A stretch of 24,000 nt of DNA from Noviherbaspirillum sp. (lineage in GTDB: Bacteria; Pseudomonadota; Gammaproteobacteria; Burkholderiales; Burkholderiaceae_D): assembly GCF_036846085.1 (NCBI RefSeq), contig NZ_DAIUCO010000018.1, positions 12,584 to 36,583 of the forward strand, written 5' to 3'. The notes beneath the pieces were generated by a model. The model searched no databases and had not been told where the DNA came from. It saw only the letters and a list, made by a program, of their open reading frames with translations. The translations under genes and the position numbers were made by a program. Of this stretch, positions 9,421 to 24,000 are shown one piece after another (the first letter of the stretch is position 1; each line of letters begins with the position of its first letter).

Positions 9421-9449
9421 TTGGTGAAATTGATAGTTTTCAATATGCT
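9421..9449 (+). promoter_or_regulatory. Candidate sigma70-type promoter for katA (TTGGTG-N17-TATGCT)
   Basis: -35-like TTGGTG at 9421-9426, a 17-nt spacer, and -10-like TATGCT at 9444-9449, about 140 nt upstream of ATG 9589. Sequence match only. Confidence 0.3.
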
Positions 9450-9588
9450 TGCCGCTAACCAACCCATCCATGCGAGACGACCCCATGCACACCGCCGCAC
9501 ATACCGCCGATTCCATGGATGCAAGCTGGCTTGCCCTATTGGCAGCCATCGCGTTGGCTTACTGATCTTTCACCTTCACGAGGCATGC

Positions 9589-11037
9589 ATGAACGAGACA
9601 ACCACATTGACGACGGCTTCCGGCATACCGGTCGACGATAACCAGAACAGTTTGACCGCCGGTCCGCGTGGTCCGGTACTGCTGCAGGATTTTCACCTGA
9701 TCGAAAAGCTGCAGCATTTCAACCGCGAGCGGATTCCGGAGCGTGTGGTACATGCTAAAGGCTCGGGCGCCTACGGCACCTTCATCGTGACACACGACAT
9801 CAGCCATTTCACCAAGGCGAAGCTCTTTGCGCAGATCGGCAAGCAGACGGAAACCTTCGTGCGTTTCTCGACCGTCGGCGGCGAGCGCGGGTCAGCCGAT
9901 ACCGAGCGCGATCCGCGTGGCTTCGCGGTGCGTTTCTATACCGAGGAAGGCAACTGGGATCTGGCCGGCAACAACACGCCGATGTTTTTCATCAAGGACC
10001 CGATCAAGTTCCCGGATTTCGTGCATACGCAGAAGCGCTGCCCGATGACCAATCTGAAATCGGCGACGATGATGTGGGACTTCTGGAGCAATGCGCCGGA
10101 GTCGCTGCACCAGGTGACGATGCTGTTTTCCGATCGCGGCACGCCGGACGGCTACCGGCATATGGACGGCTTCGGCAGCCATACCTTCAGCCTCATCAAC
10201 CATGCCGGCCAGCGCGTCTGGGTCAAGTGGCACCTGAAAACCCGCCAGGGGATCAAGAACCTGTCGGCCGCCGACGCGGTCCGCCTTGCCGGCGAGGACC
10301 CGGACTATGCGCAGCGCGACCTGTTCAATGCGATCGCCGGCGGCGATTTCCCGAAGTGGGATGTGTTCATCCAGGTGATGCGCGAAGACGAGGCAGCCGC
10401 CTGGGCGGCGAGGACAGGCTGGAATCCGTTCGACCTGACCAAGATCTGGCCGCACAAGGATTTCCCGCGCATTCCCGTCGGCACGCTGGAACTGAACCGC
10501 AACCCGGAGAACTATCACGCCGAGGTGGAGCAGGTCGCGTTCTCGCCCGCCAACATCGTTCCCGGCATGGGCTATTCGCCGGACAAGATGCTGCAGGGAC
10601 GCTTATTCGCCTATCACGACGCACAGCTCTATCGCGTGGGTACCAATCACCAGCAGCTGCCGGTCAATCGTCCTCGCTGCCCGGTCAATCACCAGCAGCG
10701 CGACGGTGCGATGGCGATCAACAATTTCGGCTCGCAACCCAACTACGCGAATGTTCACGGCAAGGGTGTGCCGTCCCGCGGATTCGGACATGGCGATGCC
10801 GGCTGGCCGCTCGTCGGCGAAGCCGGACGTTACGATCCGCGCGGCGAGGACGACGACACGACCCAGGCCGGCAACCTGTTCCGCCTGATGAGCAGCGGCG
10901 AGCAGGACCGTCTTGCTACCAACATCGCCAATGCGATGCGCGGTGTTGCCGCCGAGATCCAGCAATGCCAGCTGGCGCATTTCGATAAGGCGGACCCGGC
11001 GTATGGCGCGGCGGTGAGGACCAAGCTGGCCGCCTGA
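9589..11037 (+). CDS. katA: Monofunctional heme catalase, small-subunit type (~482 aa)
   Basis: [18 protein letters not shown] (distal His), RFSTVGGERGSADTERDPRGFAVRFYTEEGNWDLAGNNTPMFFI, and RLFAYHDAQLYRVG (proximal Tyr). The ORF track starts at TTG 9421, but ATG 9589 (MNETTT...), with GAGG 5 nt upstream, gives the canonical catalase N-terminus. Confidence 0.95.
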   Translation: MNETTTLTTASGIPVDDNQNSLTAGPRGPVLLQDFHLIEKLQHFNRERIPERVVHAKGSGAYGTFIVTHDISHFTKAKLFAQIGKQTETFVRFSTVGGERGSADTERDPRGFAVRFYTEEGNWDLAGNNTPMFFIKDPIKFPDFVHTQKRCPMTNLKSATMMWDFWSNAPESLHQVTMLFSDRGTPDGYRHMDGFGSHTFSLINHAGQRVWVKWHLKTRQGIKNLSAADAVRLAGEDPDYAQRDLFNAIAGGDFPKWDVFIQVMREDEAAAWAARTGWNPFDLTKIWPHKDFPRIPVGTLELNRNPENYHAEVEQVAFSPANIVPGMGYSPDKMLQGRLFAYHDAQLYRVGTNHQQLPVNRPRCPVNHQQRDGAMAINNFGSQPNYANVHGKGVPSRGFGHGDAGWPLVGEAGRYDPRGEDDDTTQAGNLFRLMSSGEQDRLATNIANAMRGVAAEIQQCQLAHFDKADPAYGAAVRTKLAA

Positions 11038-11335: not shown

Positions 11336-12961
11336 ATGAATACCGATCGACTCGAGCGCCCGACGCTCACCACCCGCCAGGGGCATCCCGTCAGCGACAA
11401 CCAGGCATTGCGCTCCGTCGGCGAGCGCGGCCCGGCAACGCTGGAAAACTATCAGTTCATTGAAAAGATCACCCACTTCGACCGCGAACGCATTCCCGAG
11501 CGCGTCGTCCATGCGCGCGGCACCGGCGCCCATGGTTACTTCGAACCCTACGGCAAAATCGGCAACGAGCCCGTTTCGAAATACACGCGCGCAAGGGTGC
11601 TCAATGAAGTAGGCGTGCGCACGCCGATCTTCCTTCGCTTCTCTACCGTGATCGGTTCGAAGGATTCGCCGGAGACGGCGCGCGATCCCCGCGGCTTCGC
11701 GATCAAGTTCAAGACCGTCGAAGGCAACTGGGACCTCGTCGGCAATAACCTGAAGGTGTTTTTCATCCGAGATGCGATCAAGTTTCCGGACATGATCCAC
11801 GCCTTCAAGCCCGACCCGGCGACGAACCGGCAGGAGCCCTGGCGCTTCTATGACTTCGTCTCGCAGTCGCCGGAGGCGCTGCACATGGTTACCTGGGTCA
11901 AGAGCCCATGGGGTATTCCCGCCAACTATCGGGAGATGGAAGGCTCGGGCGTAAACACCTACAAGTTCGTCAACGACCAGGGCGTTGCCCATCTCGTCAA
12001 ATTCCACTTCCAGCCGAAGCAGGGTGTGCGCAATCTCACCAGTGCGCAGGCCGCCGAGATCCAGGCGCAGGAAGTCGGTCATGCGACAAAGGATTTGTAC
12101 GAGGCGATCGAGCGCGGCGATTTCCCGGAATGGGAGTTCTGCGTGCAATTGATGACCGACGACGAGCATCCCGAACTGGACTTCGATCCGCTCGATGACA
12201 CCAAGCGCTGGCCGGAAGACAAGTTCCCGCTGCTGCCGCTCGGCCGCATCGTGCTCGACCGCAATCCCGACAATGTCTTTGCCGAGACGGAGCAGTCGGC
12301 GTTCGGTACCGGTGTGCTGGTCGACGGCATCGATTTTTCCGACGACAAGATGCTGCAGGGGCGCACGTTGTCCTACTCGGATACCCAGCGTTACCGCGTC
12401 GGTCCCAATTACCTGCAACTGCCGATCAACGCGCCGCAGGAAAAAGCCCGCGCGCACACCAACCAGCAGGGCGGCGCCATGGCCTACTACGTCGACCCCA
12501 ACGGCGGCAACCGTCACATCAACTATGAGCCCAGCCTCATGGGCGGACTGCAGGAAGCGCCCAAGCCGGAAAAGGATTATCACCAGTGGGTGGAGGGCCA
12601 TCTCGGGCGCTACCAGACCACCCGCACCGCCGACGACTACAAGCAGGCGGGCGAGCGTTACCGGACCTTCGAGGAATGGGAGCGCGAGGACCTGGTCAAC
12701 AATATCGGCAACGACCTGAAGCAATGCCCGGAGCCGATCCAGCTGCGCATGGTCTGGCATCTGTGGCACTGCGATCCGGACTACGGCACCCGCGTGGCAA
12801 AGATCGCCGGCATCGATCTGTCGCGGGCGAAGGACCTGCCGCCGCTGCCGGGCAAACCGGCGCCGCACCAGGCACGCCAGGCGACGACGTACACCAGCGG
12901 GCAGAAAGAGGAATCCGCAGGCGTGGAGACGCGTTCGGAAGAAACGAGCGGCGCCAAGTAG
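11336..12961 (+). CDS. katB: Monofunctional heme catalase, second paralog (541 aa, KatB-like) with a Pro/Lys-rich C-terminal tail
   Basis: [62 protein letters not shown] and [24 protein letters not shown] precedes ATG 11336. The katB symbol follows the P. aeruginosa katB-ankB arrangement, because an ankyrin gene follows. Confidence 0.93.
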
Positions 12962-16191: not shown

Positions 16192-17442
16192 CTACTTGCA
16201 ATCGGCCATACCCTGCGTATCCGGCGACAGCGCCCAGTCGGCATGTTTTCCAGCAGCGTTGGTCGGCAACCGGTAACCGAAAGTGAACGCTTTCGGGCGC
16301 TCCGGCGTCGCCAGATGCGTCAGCGCCCAAGCCTCAAGCCGGATGCGCAGTCCGGCAAGGTCGGCATCGGGATGGCGAGGGACGATGAATGCCTTGAGCC
16401 GGTTGCCTTCATCGGCGCGCATCAGCCGCACCGACGCGTCGAACACGTCCGGATGCTGCATCAAGGCATGCCGTACTTTGGCCGGGAAGACATTGATGCC
16501 GCCAACCTGCACCGCATCGTCGATACGGCCAGTCGGGAGAAAAGCGCGTGCATCCTTCCACGCCAGCGTATCCCGGCATGCAATCACTTCCCGCCGCCCA
16601 TCGGCGTGACGGCGCTTCAGTGCGCCTGGCTGTCCGTCGATCCGCTCCCAATGGGAAAGGAGGCGGTATTGGTCCGTTGCCCGCACCCGCCAGCCCACGC
16701 CGGCGGTTTCCGAGCTGCCGTAGATTTGCACCAGGGTCTCCATGCCGGCATGGACAAGCGCGATGCTGACGTCATCCGGGCAGGGGGCGGTCGAGGTGAC
16801 GCCCATGACACCGGCGGGCATGGAAGGCAACAGCCGTACGGCCGCGCGCCAGAATTCCGGATGCCCGATCACGAGGTCGCCGTCCCGCAGTTCGCGTGCC
16901 AGCGCGGCAGGCGAACTGCCTCGCAAATCGATGACAGGTACGCAGGACAACCCGAGCATACGGGGCAGCAGGATGGTGAAGATGAATCCGTAGATGTGGT
17001 GGCTGGGGACGGCGGACAGGATGCGCCGGCGCGCCGGAAACAGCGCCGCCAGCTCCCGCGCCTCCTGCAGGAGTATGGCTGCAGGATGTGTGCACCGCTT
17101 GGGCGTGCCGGTGCTGCCCGATGTCGTGAAGGTGAGCCGCTCCGAAAAGCGCTGCAGTCCCGCGTGCGCCACCGCGATCCAGTCTTCCATCGTCGGTCGG
17201 GCCAGCAAGTAGTCTTCGATGCCGGATTCCTGCAAATGCAGGGCTTCCGCAAGCGCACTGGCAATCGCCAGGAGTTCGAGCGAGTCGACGCCGAGATCCC
17301 GGACGATGTGCGTGTCATTTCGCCATGGCCGCTGCGGAAGCGACGCGCCGGTCGGCCGCAGCAGCGCAACCTCGGCGGCGACGAGGTCGCTGATGAATCG
17401 CCGCAGGACTTCCTCGTCATCCCACCATGCCATGTCGGCCAT
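16192..17442 (-). CDS. pcl: 4-coumarate-CoA ligase-like adenylating enzyme of the PYP-activation type (pCL), with an N-terminal carrier-protein-like region
   Basis: 416 aa. The start lies 3 nt after the pyp stop. ANL motifs present: TFTTSGSTGTPKR, QIYGSSETAG, GRIDDAVQVGGINVFP and LPTNAAGKHADW. The N-terminal ~95 aa contain VRDLGVDSLELLAIASALAEAL. The function is assigned from its position next to pyp and from the known pyp-pcl linkage in other bacteria. Confidence 0.8.
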   Translation of the reverse strand: MADMAWWDDEEVLRRFISDLVAAEVALLRPTGASLPQRPWRNDTHIVRDLGVDSLELLAIASALAEALHLQESGIEDYLLARPTMEDWIAVAHAGLQRFSERLTFTTSGSTGTPKRCTHPAAILLQEARELAALFPARRRILSAVPSHHIYGFIFTILLPRMLGLSCVPVIDLRGSSPAALARELRDGDLVIGHPEFWRAAVRLLPSMPAGVMGVTSTAPCPDDVSIALVHAGMETLVQIYGSSETAGVGWRVRATDQYRLLSHWERIDGQPGALKRRHADGRREVIACRDTLAWKDARAFLPTGRIDDAVQVGGINVFPAKVRHALMQHPDVFDASVRLMRADEGNRLKAFIVPRHPDADLAGLRIRLEAWALTHLATPERPKAFTFGYRLPTNAAGKHADWALSPDTQGMADCK

Positions 17443-17445
17443 GAT

Positions 17446-17832
17446 TCAGATTCGCTTGACGAAAATCCAGTAGGAGCCGCCGCTCAGGGCTTTTTTCATG
17501 TGCACCTTCACCTTGGTCGGTTTCATCTCGTGATCGAACAGGTACTCGAACATGGTATTGAGATTGTCCGCTTTCACGCCGGCGTCGAATACGCCCTTGA
17601 AGCGGGTGGTTGCCGTGCAGGGCGCCACGTCACGGAAAAAATTCTTGCCGATCACCGATGCCGGATCGCGTCCGGTGATTGCACCTTCCGCAGCGTTGTA
17701 CTTTAGGACGGTGCCGTTCCTGTCGAGTTCAATCGCGCCGAAGGCAAGCTTGTCGATCTCTTTTCCCGACATTCGGTTCATGACGTTCTCGATATCGGTT
17801 TTGCCGAAACCGATCAGCTCAAGTTCTTTCAT
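17446..17832 (-). CDS. pyp: Photoactive yellow protein (PAS-fold blue-light photoreceptor, p-coumaric acid chromophore)
   Basis: 128 aa. [50 protein letters not shown] and [39 protein letters not shown] align gap-free with H. halophila PYP as I remember it. Equivalents of Tyr42, Glu46, Thr50, Arg52 and Cys69 are all present (Y45, E49, T53, R55, C72). GAGGA lies 7 nt upstream of the ATG. Confidence 0.95.
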
Positions 17833-18139: not shown

Positions 18140-19108
18140 ATGTTCATGATCTGTTTTTCGCGTTTCAAAATTCATGCAGCCTGGCTTCTTGCCGGCCTGA
18201 TGCTCTGCATGCCAGCCGCAGCAAGCGACCCGATGCCAGTCGTGATGGGAACCGCCACGCCCGGAGGCGGCTTTCCTGTTTTCGGCGATGCGGTCCTGCG
18301 CACAGTTGCCAGGACCGATCCCACGCTGCAGATCGACGCGAGGAACACCAGGGGCAGCACCGAAAACATTCCCCTGCTCGAAGCCGGCAAGCTCGATATC
18401 GCGCTGGTGCAGGGTGAAGCCGCCTATGAGGCGCTGCAGGGCGTGGGGCGCCCGCCGTCAAATGTGAAAATCATCGCGGCCATGTACTCCACGCCCGGTA
18501 TGTTCGTCGTGCGCGGCGACAGTCCCTATCGCAGCATCGACGACCTGCGCGGCAAGCCGGTGGCCTTCGGCGCCAAGGGCTCCGGCCTCGTGATCCTCGC
18601 CCGCTATGTGCTGAATGGCCTCGGACTGGACATGGACAAGGATTTCCAGGCGGTGTACCTGGAGCGTGCGGGCGACGGCCCGGCGATGGTGGCGGATGGT
18701 CGCGTGGCGGCGCTGTGGGGTGGCGGCAGCAGCTGGCCGGGATTCGTCGCCGTCACCGATGCACCATCGGGCGGGCGCTTCATCGCGCCGACCGAAGCGG
18801 AGATCGCAAAAATCCGTGAGCGCCATGGTTTCCTGAAGCAACTCACCCTGCCAGCCAACAGTTTCAGAGGCCAGACGGTGCCGCTGTCGTCGGTCGGCTC
18901 ATGGAGCTTCATCATGGCGCGCCAGAACCTGCCGGACGAGACCGCATACCGACTGACGCGGGCACTGCATAAGGGCGAAGACATCATTGCCGGACTGCTG
19001 CCGCAGGCGAAGGAAACCAGGGCCGCGAATACTGCATCGGCGGCGCCGGAGGAACGCATGCTGCATCCCGGGACGCTCAAGTACCTGCGCGAAATCAAGT
19101 TGAAATAA
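18140..19108 (+). CDS. TAXI family TRAP-transporter solute receptor (orphan; no membrane subunit adjacent)
   Basis: 322 aa with signal peptide ...LLAGLMLCMPAAA. MGTATPGGGFPVFGDAV...NTRGSTENIPLLEAGKLDIALVQGEAAYEA...DDLRGKPVAFGAKGSGL...LHPGTLKYLREI follows the TAXI family pattern. The start may be ATG 18146, which has better spacing from the GGGGGAG Shine-Dalgarno. Confidence 0.85.
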   Translation: MFMICFSRFKIHAAWLLAGLMLCMPAAASDPMPVVMGTATPGGGFPVFGDAVLRTVARTDPTLQIDARNTRGSTENIPLLEAGKLDIALVQGEAAYEALQGVGRPPSNVKIIAAMYSTPGMFVVRGDSPYRSIDDLRGKPVAFGAKGSGLVILARYVLNGLGLDMDKDFQAVYLERAGDGPAMVADGRVAALWGGGSSWPGFVAVTDAPSGGRFIAPTEAEIAKIRERHGFLKQLTLPANSFRGQTVPLSSVGSWSFIMARQNLPDETAYRLTRALHKGEDIIAGLLPQAKETRAANTASAAPEERMLHPGTLKYLREIKLK

Positions 19109-19195: not shown

Positions 19196-19699
19196 ATGGC
19201 GAAACTGAACGTGAACGGAACATTGCGTGAATTTGAGGCGGAGGGTGATACGCCGCTGCTTTGGGTGCTGCGAGAGCAGCTCGGCCTGACGGGAACGAAG
19301 TACGGCTGCGGCGTAGCGATGTGCGGCGCCTGCACCGTGCATATCGACGGCGAACCGACCCGCAGCTGCGTGCGTCCGGTCTCGTCGGTCAATGCGGAGC
19401 AGAAGATCGTGACGATCGAGGGCCTGTCCAAGGACGGCTCGCATCCGGTGCAGAAGGCCTGGGTGGCGCTCGATGTGCCGCAATGCGGGTTTTGCCAGAG
19501 CGGGATGATCATGGCGGCCGCCGCGCTGCTCAAGCAGAAACCGAATCCCACCGACGCCGACATCAACGAATCCATCACCAATATCTGCCGCTGCGGCACC
19601 TACAACCGGGTGCGCGCCGCGATCAAGGTCGTTGCCAAGGGCGGGGATGCGCGCAGCGCCGGCCTGTCGATCAAGCATGTTGACGGGAGCACGACATGA
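19196..19699 (+). CDS. [2Fe-2S]-binding small subunit of an IorAB / aldehyde oxidase-type molybdenum hydroxylase
   Basis: The ORF track starts at TTG 19187. ATG 19196 (MAKLNVNG...) has GGAG 9 nt upstream. Two cluster motifs are present: [22 protein letters not shown] and [10 protein letters not shown]...CRCGTY. The stop overlaps the next start (ATGA at 19696-19699). Confidence 0.9.
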
Positions 19700-21897
19700 G
19701 CCGCGCCGTCTCCGATACCGCCGTGGCGAGCCCGTCGCGGCGCCGCTTTCTCGGTACCTCGGCTGCCGCGTTCGGCGGACTGATGGTCGGCTTTCACGTA
19801 CCGTTGACCGCCGCCGCGCAGAATGCGGCGGCCGGCGCGGTGCCGGAGGTTAATGCCTGGGTAGTGGTGAAGCCGGACGACACCGTGGTCATCCGCATTG
19901 CCCGCTCCGAGATGGGACAGGGGTCGCTGACCGGGCTGGCCCAGCTCGTCGCGGAAGAGCTGGACTGCGATTGGGCGAAAGTCACCACCGAATATCCGAC
20001 GCCCGGACAGAACCTTGCGCGTAACCGTGCCTGGGGCAATTTTTCGACCGGCGGCAGCCGCGGCATACGCGAGTCGCATGACTACGTGCGCAAGGGCGGC
20101 GCGGCGGCCCGCATGATGCTCGTGCAGGCGGCCGCGGACGAATGGAAGGTGCCGGCCGCCGAATGCCGCGCCGCCAACAGTGTCATCACCCATGGCCCGT
20201 CGAACCGCACCACTACCTATGGCAAGGTTGCCGCTGCCGCTGCGAAGCTGACGCCCCCGACGGATGTGGTGTTGAAAGACCCGAAAGAGTGGAAGGTCGC
20301 CGGCAAGCGCCTGGCACGCCTCGATACGGTGGAAAAGACCACCGGTGCGCAGATCTACGGCATGGACCTCACAATGCCCGGGATGCTGAACGCGGCGATC
20401 AAGGATTGCCCGGTATTCGGCGGCAGGGTAAAAAGCTTCAAGGCCGCCGAAATCCAAGGCCGCCCCGGCGTAAAGAAAGTGGTGCAGGTCGGCGACAGCG
20501 CCGTCGCCGTGGTGGCGGATACATGGTGGCACGCCAAGACGGCGCTGGACGCACTGACGATCGAATGGGACAACGGGCCGAACGCCAAGGTATCGAGCGC
20601 CGGCATCGCCGAGACGCTGAAGGCGGGACTTGACGCGAACGACGCGGCGGTCGGCAACCAGAACGGCGACGTGCGCGCCGCGCTGAATTCCGCGGCGCGC
20701 AAGATCGAAGCGGTTTATTCCTACCCATACCAGAACCACGCGACGATGGAGACCATGAACGCCACGGCGAAATGGACACCGGAGCGCTGCGAAGTCTGGA
20801 CGCCGACGCAGAACGGCGAAGCGGCATTGGCCGCCGCGGCCGAGGCGGCGGAACTGCCGCCGTCGAAATGCGAGGTGTACAAGATTCACCTCGGCGGCGG
20901 CTTTGGCCGGCGCGGCGCGGTACACGACTGGGTGCGGCAGGCGGTGGCGATCGCGAAGGAAATGCCCGGCACGCCCATCAAGCTGATCTGGTCGCGCGAA
21001 GAGGACATGCTGCATGGCCGCTACCATCCGGTCACGCAATGCAAGCTGACGGCCGGTCTCGATGCGCAGGGCAATATCACCGGACTCCATATGCGCATTT
21101 CCGGTCAGTCCATCCTCGCAGGGGTGTTCCCCCAGAACATCAAGGACGGCAAGGATCCGGTCGTGTTCCAGGGCCTGAATCCGCCCGGCCCGGAAGCATC
21201 GATCGGTTACAGTTTCCCGAACCTCCTGATCGACCACGCGATGCGCAATCCGCCGGTGCCGCCCGGCTTCTGGCGCGGCGTGAACCTGAACCAGAACACC
21301 ATCTATCTCGAATGCTTTCTCGACGAGATCGCTCATGCGACGAAGCAGGATCCGCTGGCCCTGCGCCGCAAGCTGATGGCCAATCATCCGAAGCATCTCG
21401 CGGTACTGAACGCGGCCGCCGATCGCGCCGGCTGGGACAAGCCGCCGCCGAAGGGCGTGTTCCGCGGACTGGCGCAGACGATGGGCTTCGGCAGCTATGT
21501 GGCGGCGGTGGCGGAAGTATCGGTCAGCGACGAGGGTGGCCTGAAAATCCATCGCATCGTGGCGGCCACCGACCCGGGCCATGCATTGAACCCGCAGCAG
21601 ATCGAAGCCCAGGTGGAAGGGTCGTTCGTGTACGGCCTGTCGGCGGCGCTGTATGGCGAATGCACGGTCAAGGACGGCCGCATGGAGCAGGACAACTTCA
21701 CCAGCTACCAGGTGATGCGGATGGATGAAATGCCGCCGGTGGAAACCGTGCTCGTTCCTTCGGGCGGATTCTGGGGCGGGGTGGGCGAGCCGACCATCGC
21801 GGTGGCGGCGCCGGCGGTGCTCAATGCCATCTTCGCCGCCACCGGCAAGCGCATCCGCGACTTGCCGTTAAAAAACCATAGCCTGAAGAAAGCGTAG
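19696..21897 (+). CDS. Molybdopterin-binding large subunit of an IorAB / xanthine dehydrogenase-family oxidoreductase, TAT-exported
   Basis: 733 aa. Twin-arginine signal [22 protein letters not shown]. Its length and sequence blocks ([47 protein letters not shown]) fit the CoxL/IorB family. GGGAG lies 6 nt upstream of the ATG. Confidence 0.9.
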
Positions 21898-21952
21898 GGC
21901 ATGAGCATGCGGAGGCGCGAATGCGTCTCCGCGATACCGCCGGACACAAGCC

Positions 21953-22417
21953 ATGTGGTTATTCGTCACCGCGCTTTTACTCGCATCAAGCGGCACCGCA
22001 TGGGCTGCCGGCGAGACGGCCTTGCCTTACCGCATCGTCGGCGATGCGATACCCGATTCCCTGACCGGCGCGCCCGGTGACGCGGCAAGGGGCCGTGCGA
22101 TCGTTGCGAACCGGCAGGTCGGCCTGTGCCTGTTGTGCCATGCCGGGCCGCTGCCGGAAGAACGCTTCCAAGGCAATCTCGCACCCGACCTCGCCGGGAC
22201 GGGCGCGCGCTGGAGCGAAGGGCAATTGCGCCTGCGCATCGTCGATGCCGGCCGCGTCAATCCGGCGACCATCATGCCGCCGTATTACCGTACCGATGGC
22301 TTGGTCCGGGTCAATCCCGCGGTGCAGGGAAAGCCCATACTGGATGCAAGGCAGATCGAAGATGTCGTTGCCTACCTGCGCACATTGCGCGAGCCGCCAC
22401 AACAGAAAGCTGAGTGA
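21953..22417 (+). CDS. soxX: SoxX-like monoheme c-type cytochrome
   Basis: 154 aa. Signal peptide MWLFVTALLLASSGTAWA. A single CLLCH heme motif. APDLAGTG...LRLRIVDAGRVNPATIMPPYY...LDARQIEDVVAYLRTL follows the SoxX pattern. The stop overlaps the next gene's start (TGATG). Confidence 0.8.
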   Translation: MWLFVTALLLASSGTAWAAGETALPYRIVGDAIPDSLTGAPGDAARGRAIVANRQVGLCLLCHAGPLPEERFQGNLAPDLAGTGARWSEGQLRLRIVDAGRVNPATIMPPYYRTDGLVRVNPAVQGKPILDARQIEDVVAYLRTLREPPQQKAE

Positions 22418-22899
22418 TGTCCGATCCACATGAATTTTCTTCCGGAACCGACCGCAAGCGCCGCAGGCTGCTGGCGGCAGGGGCCGGCCTCGGGGCCTGG
22501 CTGATCGTCCGGCCCGCAAGCGCGACGCCGGATGAGATGGCCGCCGCCATCAGGTCCTATACCGGCGGTGCGAAAGTGAATGCCGGCAAGGTGAAGCTCG
22601 ACGTGGCGGCGCTGGTCGATAACGGCAACGCCGTACCGGTCACGGTTGCCGTCGACAGTCCCATGACCGCCGCCGACCATGTCGCCGCCATCGCGATCTT
22701 CAACGAGCGCAATCCGCAGACCGATGTCGCCCGCTTTACCCTCGGGCCGCGCGCCGGCAAGGCGAGCGTATCCACCCGCATGCGGCTGGCGACGTCGCAG
22801 AAGCTGACGGCGGTGGCGAAACTGAGCGACGGCAGTTACTGGTCCCACACCATCGACGTGGTGGTGACCCTGGCTGCCTGCATCGAAGGCGAGACCTGA
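22417..22899 (+). CDS. SoxY-related sulfur-carrier-like protein with a non-canonical C-terminal arm (...VVVTLAACIEGET)
   Basis: ORF track 22414 (GTG); the ATG is at 22417. TAT-type signal DRKRRRLLAAGAGLGAWLIVRPASA. The body (KVKLDVAALVDNGNAVPVTVAVDSPMTAADHVAAIAIFNERNP...AVAKLSDGSYWSHTIDVVVT) follows SoxY. The canonical C-terminal GGCGG is replaced by AACIEGET. I recall an NCBI family name 'SoxY-related AACIE arm protein' but cannot verify it here. Confidence 0.85.
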   Translation: MSDPHEFSSGTDRKRRRLLAAGAGLGAWLIVRPASATPDEMAAAIRSYTGGAKVNAGKVKLDVAALVDNGNAVPVTVAVDSPMTAADHVAAIAIFNERNPQTDVARFTLGPRAGKASVSTRMRLATSQKLTAVAKLSDGSYWSHTIDVVVTLAACIEGET

Positions 22900-22900
22900 C

Positions 22901-23224
22901 ATGGCACGCACACTCATCAAAGTACCGGCCACCGCGAAGCGTGGCGAGGTGATTGAAATCCGCACGCTCATCGCCCATCCGATGGAAACCGGCTACCGCC
23001 CCGGCGCCGACGGCCAGGTCGTGCCGCGCGACATCCTGCGGCGCTTCACCTGCCGTTACAACGGCGAGGTGGTGTTCAGCGCCGAATTGTTCCCGGCCAT
23101 CGCTGCCAATCCCAGCATCAACTTCCATACCGTCGCCACCGACAGCGGCACGCTGGCGTTCACCTGGGAGGGCGACAAGGGATTCACGCAGACGGCGTCG
23201 GTGGCGATCACCGTCACCGGCTAG
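22901..23224 (+). CDS. soxZ: SoxZ-like thiosulfate-oxidation carrier complex subunit
   Basis: 107 aa. KVPATAKRGEVIEIRTLIAHPMETGYR...RFTCRYNGEVVFSAELFPAIAANP is the SoxZ pattern. It starts 1 nt after the SoxY-like stop. Confidence 0.9.
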   Translation: MARTLIKVPATAKRGEVIEIRTLIAHPMETGYRPGADGQVVPRDILRRFTCRYNGEVVFSAELFPAIAANPSINFHTVATDSGTLAFTWEGDKGFTQTASVAITVTG

Positions 23225-23229
23225 GCGCG

Positions 23230-24000
23230 ATGCGGATGGCCGCGATGCTGATGGTCCTTGCCGCTTGCGGCCCGTCGGCACATGCGCAGCCGACGGGCGA
23301 TAGCCGCCTGCCCGGTTCCGCGTTCATGGGCACATCGACGCAGAAGATGCAGCGCGACGACAGCCTCAATCCCGGCATGCTGTGGGTGCAGGAGGGTGAG
23401 GCGCTGTGGAGCCGTAGTGCGGGGAAGAGCGATCGTTCCTGCGCAAGCTGTCATGGCGATGCAAAGACATCGATGCGCGGCGTGGCGGCGCGCTATCCCG
23501 CCTTCGATGCGAAGAGCAAGCGCCTGCTGAATCTCGGCCAGCGCATCAACCAGTGCCGGCAGGAGCGCCAGCAGGCGCCGGCCTTCGCGGCGGAAAGCGA
23601 AGCCTTGCTCGGGCTGGAGAGTTATGTCGCCCTGCAGTCGCGCGGCATGCCGGTGACGCCACCGGGCGATGCGGCGCTGCAGGCGTTTTATGCGCGGGGC
23701 GAGCAGCGCTGGCGACAGCGCATGGGGCAGCTCAATCTCTCCTGCGCGCAATGCCATGATGACTATTGGGGCAAGCGACTTGGGGGCAGCATCATCCCGC
23801 AGGGCCATGCCAGCGGATATCCAATCTATCGTCTCGAATGGCAGGGGATGGGATCGTTGCAGCGGCGCTTGCGGAATTGCATGACAGGCGTGAGGGCGGA
23901 GCCGTTCGCGCTCGGGTCGCAGGAGCTGGTGGAACTGGAGTTGTACCTGGCGAAGAGGGCGAAGGGGATGGCGATGGAGGCGCCGGGGGTGAGGCCTTGA
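23230..24000 (+). CDS. soxA: SoxA-like diheme c-type cytochrome
   Basis: 256 aa with signal peptide MRMAAMLMVLAACGPSAHA. Two heme motifs, CASCHG and CAQCHD. The conserved LQRRLRNCMTGVRAEP block contains the active-site Cys. The stop codon occupies the last three bases of the window. Confidence 0.9.
   Translation: MRMAAMLMVLAACGPSAHAQPTGDSRLPGSAFMGTSTQKMQRDDSLNPGMLWVQEGEALWSRSAGKSDRSCASCHGDAKTSMRGVAARYPAFDAKSKRLLNLGQRINQCRQERQQAPAFAAESEALLGLESYVALQSRGMPVTPPGDAALQAFYARGEQRWRQRMGQLNLSCAQCHDDYWGKRLGGSIIPQGHASGYPIYRLEWQGMGSLQRRLRNCMTGVRAEPFALGSQELVELELYLAKRAKGMAMEAPGVRP

Follow-up and report, generated by a model that had tools for sequence, protein, structure and literature searches.

Sequence analysis of a 24,000-nucleotide (nt) stretch of DNA from a Noviherbaspirillum sp. 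(the window; G000:C18:12584-36583, on contig C18 of genome G000) revealed six tightly packed genes on the same strand at positions 19196-24000, which both the list of open reading frames (ORFs) and the raw sequence place in the order iorA-iorB-soxX-soxY'-soxZ-soxA. The first two encode a two-subunit xanthine oxidase-family molybdenum (Mo) enzyme and the following four encode a Sox-like set, in which SoxY' is a SoxY-type carrier with a variant arm. The best explanation for this locus is that its genes are the first six of eight that make up a periplasmic module working without SoxB. iorAB has the SoxYZ-like carrier, and not SoxXA, as its invariant neighbour, and the conserved synteny together with the absence of soxB and soxCD after soxA makes it very likely that the Mo hydroxylase and the Sox-like genes are functionally linked. 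The cluster type is widespread, has been noted in print and has never been characterised, and our locus is a further member of it. By comparison with systems that have been characterised, it represents a new variation on the Sox carrier principle, built with a Mo enzyme of a different family.

Conserved pairing of iorAB with a SoxYZ-like carrier

Close relatives of the locus were collected from an alignment of 22 carriers, which gave 581 loci on contigs taken from one genome per species; the best 80 were kept and scanned by tblastn with the six window proteins. iorB adjoins the carrier genes in 78 of these best 80 of 581 loci, and the six-gene order is found wherever the contig allows, in Noviherbaspirillum, Massilia, Duganella, Undibacterium, Polaromonas, Hylemonella, Curvibacter, Rhizobacter and other genera. 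The two exceptions are a locus cut by a contig end (L052) and one that has a divergent fccB in place of iorAB (L079). For the order, 301 genomes were searched with the NCBIfam model TIGR04487 and all 64 loci scoring at least about 100 bits were fetched. These were divided by the arm of the carrier, an A-arm being [AS]AC followed by a hydrophobic and usually an acidic residue and a GCG-arm ending in ..GCG, ..SSCG or ..ACGG. iorAB lies within 5 kb in 31/35 A-arm loci, the others being two contig-end cuts and two loci without iorAB, and it is adjacent in 29/29 GCG-arm loci, or about 60 of the 64 for both arm types. A third sample of 401 genomes from the phylum added ten new variant-arm loci, including those of Bradyrhizobium spp. 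and Hyphomonas, all ten with iorAB nearby; in the same sample no IorB was found in the 1.5-kb flanks of canonical GGCGG loci (0/16).

In the reciprocal test, which took IorB matches of at least 58% identity, about 29 adjoin a carrier gene and four lie on broken contigs. The adjacency recurs in more than 130 loci and in several gene orders, with iorAB always near the carrier, and the pairing is retained in two proteobacterial classes. IorB-family genes number one to three per genome of several Mb, and because they are so few the chance of adjacency within 10 kb is well under 1% per locus. An earlier note, drawn up from the letters of the window, had suggested asking whether soxY genes of the AACIE type co-localise with iorAB, and they do so strongly in all three nested samples.

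The order of the genes around iorAB identifies the constant partner. The 29 GCG-arm loci (L093-L134) represent a sister module, iorA-iorB-soxY-soxZ (for example L108 6967-10460), with an IorB about 50% identical to that of the window; neither soxX nor soxA, nor any ORF with a CxxCH motif, was found nearby in these 29 loci. Three A-arm loci (L086, L088 and L154) are likewise without soxX, and in L087 the order is iorAB-Y-Z-X-A. Bradyrhizobium and Hyphomonas have the same eight genes rearranged as iorA-iorB-(cytochrome c)-fccB-soxX-soxY'-soxZ-soxA, so that fccAB stands between iorB and soxX. FccAB is present in the cluster of the closest relative (L005), of this genome (on contig C126, described below) and of the alphaproteobacteria, and it stays by soxXY'ZA even in L079; beyond it, no conserved extra neighbours of the module such as regulators or transporters were found. 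Members of the IorB clade that stand alone have no cytochrome gene beside them. The earlier note had proposed that SoxX and SoxA occupy the position of a cytochrome c third subunit of the Mo enzyme. The 29 iorAB-soxYZ loci, the fccAB insertion and the stand-alone members without a cytochrome argue against this; the synteny upholds that note's more general idea, a link between the Mo hydroxylase and the Sox-like genes.

A maximum-likelihood tree of 88 IorB sequences follows the type of carrier arm. Those encoded with GCG-arm carriers fall into a single clade (27 rows; Shimodaira-Hasegawa-like approximate likelihood ratio test (SH-aLRT) 100) and partners of A-arm carriers form the other main branch, inside which the stand-alone genes are scattered. 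Since this is essentially one deep split, the tree is consistent with co-diversification of enzyme and arm and is not a statistical proof of it. In the tree the IorB of L011, which is labelled as a metagenome-assembled genome (MAG) of Asaia bogorensis, falls within Comamonadaceae, at a path length of ~0.11 from the nearly identical protein of a Polaromonas MAG; probably the MAG of L011 has been mislabelled or misbinned. Genome G237 splits the parts of the module: soxX-soxY'(TACLD)-soxZ-soxA (L125, G237:C5:49800-69700) has a SoxC-family gene, G237:C5:53569-54780, at a distance of about 3.5 kb, while iorAB-soxY'Z and a stand-alone iorAB occupy two further contigs, one each (L088, L149).

The molybdenum enzyme, the carrier and SoxXA

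The small subunit IorA (19196-19699, + strand; 167 aa) contains two [2Fe-2S] domains (Pfam Fer2 and Fer2_2). It has no signal peptide and is therefore presumably exported together with IorB through the twin-arginine translocation (Tat) pathway. IorB (19696-21897, +; 733 aa) contains the Pfam domains MoCoBD_1 and MoCoBD_2, carries a twin-arginine signal (SRRRFLG) and can be aligned along its whole length with the large subunit of a membrane aldehyde dehydrogenase from Gluconobacter, 8GY3_C (E 1e-73). Four residues, Q75 (in GQG), R405 (in GGGFGRR), R527 and E698 (in GVGEP), are invariant in 88/88 clade members; the other GGGFGRR positions are invariant or nearly so, and the RR pair of the Tat signal is kept in 79/79 sequences whose N-terminus is covered. 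The position of E698 is that of the catalytic base in the xanthine oxidase family. Judged by these residues, IorB looks functional, a catalytically intact, Tat-exported and predicted periplasmic enzyme of this family.

Regarding its substrate class, no NCBIfam equivalog attains its cut-off for IorAB; the best matches of IorA are iron-sulfur subunits of the xanthine oxidase family, every one below the equivalog cut-off. The pair has the features of the IorAB/membrane aldehyde dehydrogenase subfamily, namely a small subunit with two [2Fe-2S] clusters, both domains that bind the molybdenum cofactor, the catalytic Glu and the GQG, GGGFGRR and GxGEP motifs. Two-subunit IorAB-type enzymes of proteobacteria are very often encoded with a third gene for a cytochrome c subunit. 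Here such a gene is missing and soxX comes after iorB; a cytochrome gene was not seen beside the two other IorB paralogues of this genome either. With neither a flavin adenine dinucleotide (FAD) subunit gene nor its own cytochrome gene, IorAB must rely on an acceptor from outside. The three-subunit aldehyde dehydrogenase of Gluconobacter (8GY3) and the IorAB isoquinoline 1-oxidoreductase resemble the enzyme described here in the two-[2Fe-2S] small subunit, the absence of an FAD subunit and export by Tat. They differ from it in that no cytochrome c subunit is encoded here, a subunit that the 8GY3 enzyme carries, and in that the partner is a SoxYZ-like carrier.

The carrier gene soxY' (22417-22899, +) encodes 160 aa counted from the ATG, and an alternative in-frame start, GTG, lies at 22414. 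SoxY' matches TIGR04487, 'SoxY-related AACIE arm protein', with 217.9 bits (E 4.6e-65; cut-off 172), and scores 93.2 bits against the canonical SoxY model TIGR04488, below the cut-off of 125. It has a Tat signal (RRRLL), and its C-terminus ends in ...VVVTLAACIEGET, with an arm, ...VTLAAC156IEGET, in which AACIE replaces GGCGG and which conforms to the TIGR04487 motif. Cys156 aligns with the carrier cysteine of the Paracoccus SoxY (2OXG), and C156 and E158 are invariant among the 22 relatives. Compared with the canonical arm, that of SoxY' is bulkier and acidic, with the cysteine at the canonical position. Its partner SoxZ (22901-23224, +; 107 aa, no signal peptide) matches TIGR04490 with 81.5 bits against a cut-off of 76, and also matches Pfam SoxZ.

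SoxX (21953-22417, +), which has a Sec signal, is a monohaem cytochrome c (CLLCH); it matches TIGR04485 with 76.4 bits against a cut-off of 61. SoxA (23230-24000, +) is a dihaem cytochrome c (CASCH, CAQCH) that matches TIGR04484 with 237.7 bits (cut-off 110) and aligns over its full length with two dihaem SoxA proteins, 1H31 from Rhodovulum and 2C1D from Paracoccus. The two CxxCH motifs are conserved, and so are the two cysteine haem ligands, in INQC and in LRNC, the cysteine of LRNC being the active-site Cys. The carrier and the SoxXA proteins therefore look functional and are predicted to be competent. By inspection of the sequence, the signal peptide of SoxA, MRMAAMLMVLAACGPSAHAQ (window 23230-23290), has a lipobox-like LAAC, because of which SoxA might be lipid-anchored rather than soluble. 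These profile searches (NCBIfam and Pfam) agree with the gene names given in the earlier note. Each of the six genes shows purifying selection, with omega values of 0.04-0.22 against four relatives (0.05-0.13 for iorA); the synonymous divergence (dS) is near saturation for more distant ones.

The genes are packed with little space between them. The stop of iorA and the start of iorB overlap as ATGA, the TGA of soxX and the ATG of soxY' at 22417 have an A in common (TGATG), soxY' and soxZ are 1 nt apart, soxZ and soxA are 5 nt apart, and the soxA stop codon is the final codon of the window. The only larger gap, 55 nt between iorB and soxX (21898-21952), holds a hairpin at 21909-21932 (+). As DNA it reads GCGGAGGCGC-GAAT-GCGTCTCCGC and as RNA GCGGAGGCGC/GAAU/GCGUCUCCGC, with a 10-bp stem that includes one G-U pair and with no T-run (U-tract) after it, and it does not match a terminator pattern. 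The coordinates, both overlaps, the gap and the hairpin without a T-tract had all been read correctly in the earlier note. The 71-nt hairpin region folds at -28.3 kcal/mol, and 15/200 shuffles fold equally well; with z of only -1.6, the hairpin is real yet not exceptional for the G+C content. It is retained in L005 through two one-sided changes that keep the pairing. In more distant relatives the sequence between iorB and soxX is unrelated and about 3 to 260 nt long, and some of these spacers contain other hairpins. The window hairpin may tune how strongly the two transcript halves are expressed relative to each other, or how stable they are.

Independence from SoxB and SoxCD, and the genomic setting

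Contig C18 ends 168 bp past soxA, within a dispersed repeat of about 90 bp (G000:C18:36662-36751; L001 2580-2669) that has more than 50 genomic copies, many of them at contig ends, and this repeat accounts for the interruption of the assembly. L005 is a Noviherbaspirillum MAG whose proteins are 96-98% identical; there, the genes after soxA encode a 118-aa cytochrome c and a 421-aa flavoprotein of the FccB/SoxF sulfide dehydrogenase type. In this genome contig C126 ends with the cytochrome c gene, fccB and the subsequent MatE gene, oriented to match. Because the end of C126 matches the region 3' of soxA in L005, we infer that soxA is joined to C126 across the repeat and that the cluster continues with the cytochrome c gene and fccB. 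The earlier note was right that the window holds neither soxB nor soxCD, and its suggestion to look past position 24000 for them led to the cytochrome c and FccB instead.

No SoxB candidate was found anywhere in the genome, which is 97% complete, and genome-wide no SoxC scored above the cut-off, the best match reaching 166.9 bits against 420. There is one SoxA and a single SoxY, which is this variant; a canonical SoxY is absent. Here the module is self-sufficient and independent of SoxB and SoxCD.

SoxB and SoxC were also counted in the order sample by a hand cross-tabulation, which is descriptive only, as related genomes are not independent. Overall, SoxB is present in 152/301 genomes (~50%) and SoxC in 74/301 (~25%). 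Among genomes with an A-arm module the counts are 18/30 for SoxB and 15/30 for SoxC, with 12/30 lacking SoxB, and among those with a GCG-arm module they are 21/29 and 12/29. We considered whether IorAB substitutes for SoxCD in a truncated Sox system and rejected this as a phyletic pattern, as SoxC at 15/30 and 12/29 is no lower than the background of 74/301. Dependence of the module on SoxB was rejected as well, given the 12/30 A-arm genomes without it. By these counts the module neither depends on nor replaces SoxB/SoxCD in any straightforward phyletic way; some genomes have it beside a full Sox system, and others, this one included, have it alone. The earlier proposal that the Mo hydroxylase acts in place of SoxCD/SoxB, as a complement to a truncated Sox system, is not supported by this comparison, the SoxB and SoxC rates of carrier genomes being no lower than background.

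The canonical Sox systems of Paracoccus pantotrophus and Rhodovulum sulfidophilum share with this locus a dihaem-type SoxXA, here with the active-site cysteine haem ligand in place, a homologous carrier cysteine, a periplasmic location and a Mo enzyme in the set. They differ in the arm of SoxY, GGCGG there and AACIE(GET) here, in the SoxB hydrolase, which is absent here, and in the Mo enzyme, SoxCD belonging to the sulfite oxidase family and IorAB to the xanthine oxidase family. The nearest published likeness is the second sox cluster of Starkeya novella, soxX2Y2Z2A2F2 (Snov_1982-1977), whose operon includes a xanthine oxidase-family Mo enzyme, Snov_1975/1976 (Kappler and Nouwens 2013, PMC3797975). 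Likened by description, its inventory of SoxXA, SoxYZ, a SoxF/FccB flavoprotein and a two-subunit Mo enzyme, without SoxB or SoxCD, is that found here, all eight genes being accounted for by the six in the window and the two on C126 if the join across the repeat holds. Starkeya also has a complete canonical Sox system, and this genome has none. No function was assigned to the Starkeya cluster, which was proposed either to have no functional significance or to be active under other conditions (PMC3797975). The earlier description of the module as undescribed was therefore too strong, the carrier being curated as TIGR04487 and the cluster reported in 2013, although without a function.

A 2026 survey of Sox evolution counted about 1000-1300 out-of-cluster paralogues each of soxA, soxX, soxY and soxZ, and leaves the Mo enzyme unmentioned (PMC13500833). 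Literature searches on the AACIE arm and on isoquinoline 1-oxidoreductase linked to sox returned nothing relevant. Precedents for an oxidoreductase with a dedicated SoxYZ-type carrier come from Campylobacterota, in which the Mo enzyme SoxCD is reported to be encoded with its own soxY2Z2 (soxCDY2Z2), apart from soxABXY1Z1, and from NCBIfam TIGR04557, the 'quinoprotein dehydrogenase-associated SoxYZ-like carrier', itself uncharacterised. The enzymes in those cases are the sulfite-oxidase-type SoxCD and a pyrroloquinoline quinone (PQQ) dehydrogenase, in contrast to the xanthine oxidase-family enzyme of our locus.

A simple scan of the locus found no sigma-70-like promoter, and no known RNA elements such as a Moco riboswitch were found near the genes. 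Upstream, a gene for a TAXI/NMT1-type periplasmic solute-binding protein (18140-19108, +) ends 87 nt before iorA. A full-length counterpart occurs only in L005, with one short fragment matching in L008, and given this limited sharing the gene is probably outside the module. Elsewhere in the window, a photoactive yellow protein (PYP) gene (17446-17832, -; 127 aa) matches solved PYPs with E 1e-53 and has the VAPC chromophore cysteine motif. Directly downstream of it lies an AMP-binding ligase gene (16192-17442, -) that resembles the p-coumarate-coenzyme A ligase attaching the chromophore. Such genes are unusual for a soil bacterium of the Oxalobacteraceae. Two tandem genes for monofunctional catalases lie at 9421-11037 (+) and 11336-12961 (+), with Pfam Catalase E-values of 4e-192 and 1e-166.

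A possible mechanism and competing explanations

The explanation we favour, at about even odds, is that the Mo enzyme acts on a sulfur group bound to the SoxY' cysteine. In such a scheme SoxXA, possibly with FccAB, would load Cys156 of SoxY' by oxidation with some form of reduced sulfur, either sulfide or polysulfide or perhaps thiosulfate. The arm of SoxY' would then present the adduct to the Mo centre of IorB, which would oxidise it, and c-type cytochromes would receive the electrons by way of IorA's two [2Fe-2S] clusters. We infer this action of IorB on a carrier-bound group, as well as the identity of the substrate and the release of the product. Taken in full, the proposal would make IorAB the first xanthine oxidase-family Mo enzyme to oxidise sulfur on the cysteine arm of a carrier and, with SoxXA, SoxY'Z and FccAB, part of a self-contained periplasmic sulfide/sulfane pathway without SoxB or SoxCD, widespread in heterotrophic Proteobacteria of soil and freshwater. 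We advance this full version tentatively, the odds being somewhat against it. Action of IorB on the carrier is favoured by the conserved synteny, by the carrier being the constant partner, by the link to sulfur that the usual presence of FccAB provides, by the intact key residues and purifying selection, by the self-sufficiency of the module in this genome and by the precedent in Campylobacterota.

Several observations weigh against it. Established chemistry in the xanthine oxidase family is the hydroxylation of carbon centres, and we know of no member that oxidises sulfur or a protein-bound substrate. The cluster encodes no hydrolase such as SoxB for the release of a product, and five IorB genes of the same clade in the reciprocal test stand alone, without carrier genes. 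The second cluster of Starkeya is barely expressed on glucose, methanol or thiosulfate (PMC3797975), and in Bradyrhizobium diazoefficiens, which has two soxY genes, soxY1 is the only one that the oxidation of thiosulfate cannot do without (Masuda et al. 2017, PMC5748708); soxY2 may be of the variant type.

In the alternative that survives best, the substrate of IorAB is an unbound small molecule, for instance an aldehyde or N-heterocycle, and SoxXA and perhaps the Fcc cytochrome are only acceptors replacing the cytochrome c subunit. Transfer of electrons to SoxXA was the first option named in the earlier note. It draws on the external acceptor that IorAB needs, on soxX lying only 55 nt past iorB and on the closest solved relative, 8GY3, which is an aldehyde dehydrogenase of the same subfamily. 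However, the constant neighbour, SoxYZ, has no redox cofactor, and the 29 iorAB-soxYZ loci have neither soxXA nor a nearby CxxCH ORF. The placement of fccAB between iorB and soxX in Bradyrhizobium and Hyphomonas and the cytochrome-less stand-alone clade members also speak against it, and the division of the IorB tree by type of carrier arm is left unexplained. We regard this alternative as unlikely.

Less likely again is a role of the carrier in maintaining the Mo cofactor, with the true substrate of IorAB unrelated to sulfur. Enzymes of the xanthine oxidase family depend on a Mo=S ligand, which is labile, and the cytoplasmic XdhC/NifS machinery could not replace it in the periplasm; a persulfide on SoxY'Z, loaded by SoxXA or Fcc, would restore it. 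Such a role would explain why a sulfur carrier is tied to an enzyme of this family and persists without SoxXA, and the sulfide-oxidising FccAB would fit as the source of sulfur. Six accessory genes are nevertheless a costly way to repair one enzyme, and stand-alone members of the clade exist. To our knowledge, periplasmic enzymes of the family such as PaoABC manage without a system of this kind.

It is very improbable that the Sox-like genes are redundant paralogues of canonical Sox without a role of their own, next to iorAB for historical reasons. The very low expression of the second Starkeya cluster in three growth conditions (PMC3797975) and the dispensability of Bradyrhizobium soxY2 for thiosulfate oxidation (PMC5748708) would agree with silent duplicates. 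Against this, this genome and 11 other sampled module genomes are without SoxB, so that in these 12 genomes there is nothing for the module to be redundant with, and purifying selection acts on all six genes, catalytic residues are invariant and synteny spans two proteobacterial classes. Least probable of all, two operons, iorAB and soxXY'ZA, that are neighbours by chance or merely co-regulated could be divided by the stable hairpin in the 55-nt gap, but this has no U-tract and does not resemble a terminator, and the adjacency in over 130 loci far exceeds what random 10-kb neighbourhoods would give. What remains of the probability goes to an explanation not yet thought of.

If the Mo enzyme does act on the arm of SoxY', this would be a new kind of chemistry for the xanthine oxidase family and would give the bacterial sulfur cycle a second carrier-based oxidation route. 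It would also account for many of the 'orphan' soxA, soxX, soxY and soxZ paralogues met with in genomic surveys (PMC13500833). Hosts of the module, among them Noviherbaspirillum, Massilia, Polaromonas and Bradyrhizobium, are abundant heterotrophs of soil and freshwater that, being without soxB, the usual marker gene, go uncounted as sulfur oxidisers, and the pairing of iorAB with the carrier is kept in well over a hundred soil and freshwater bacteria.

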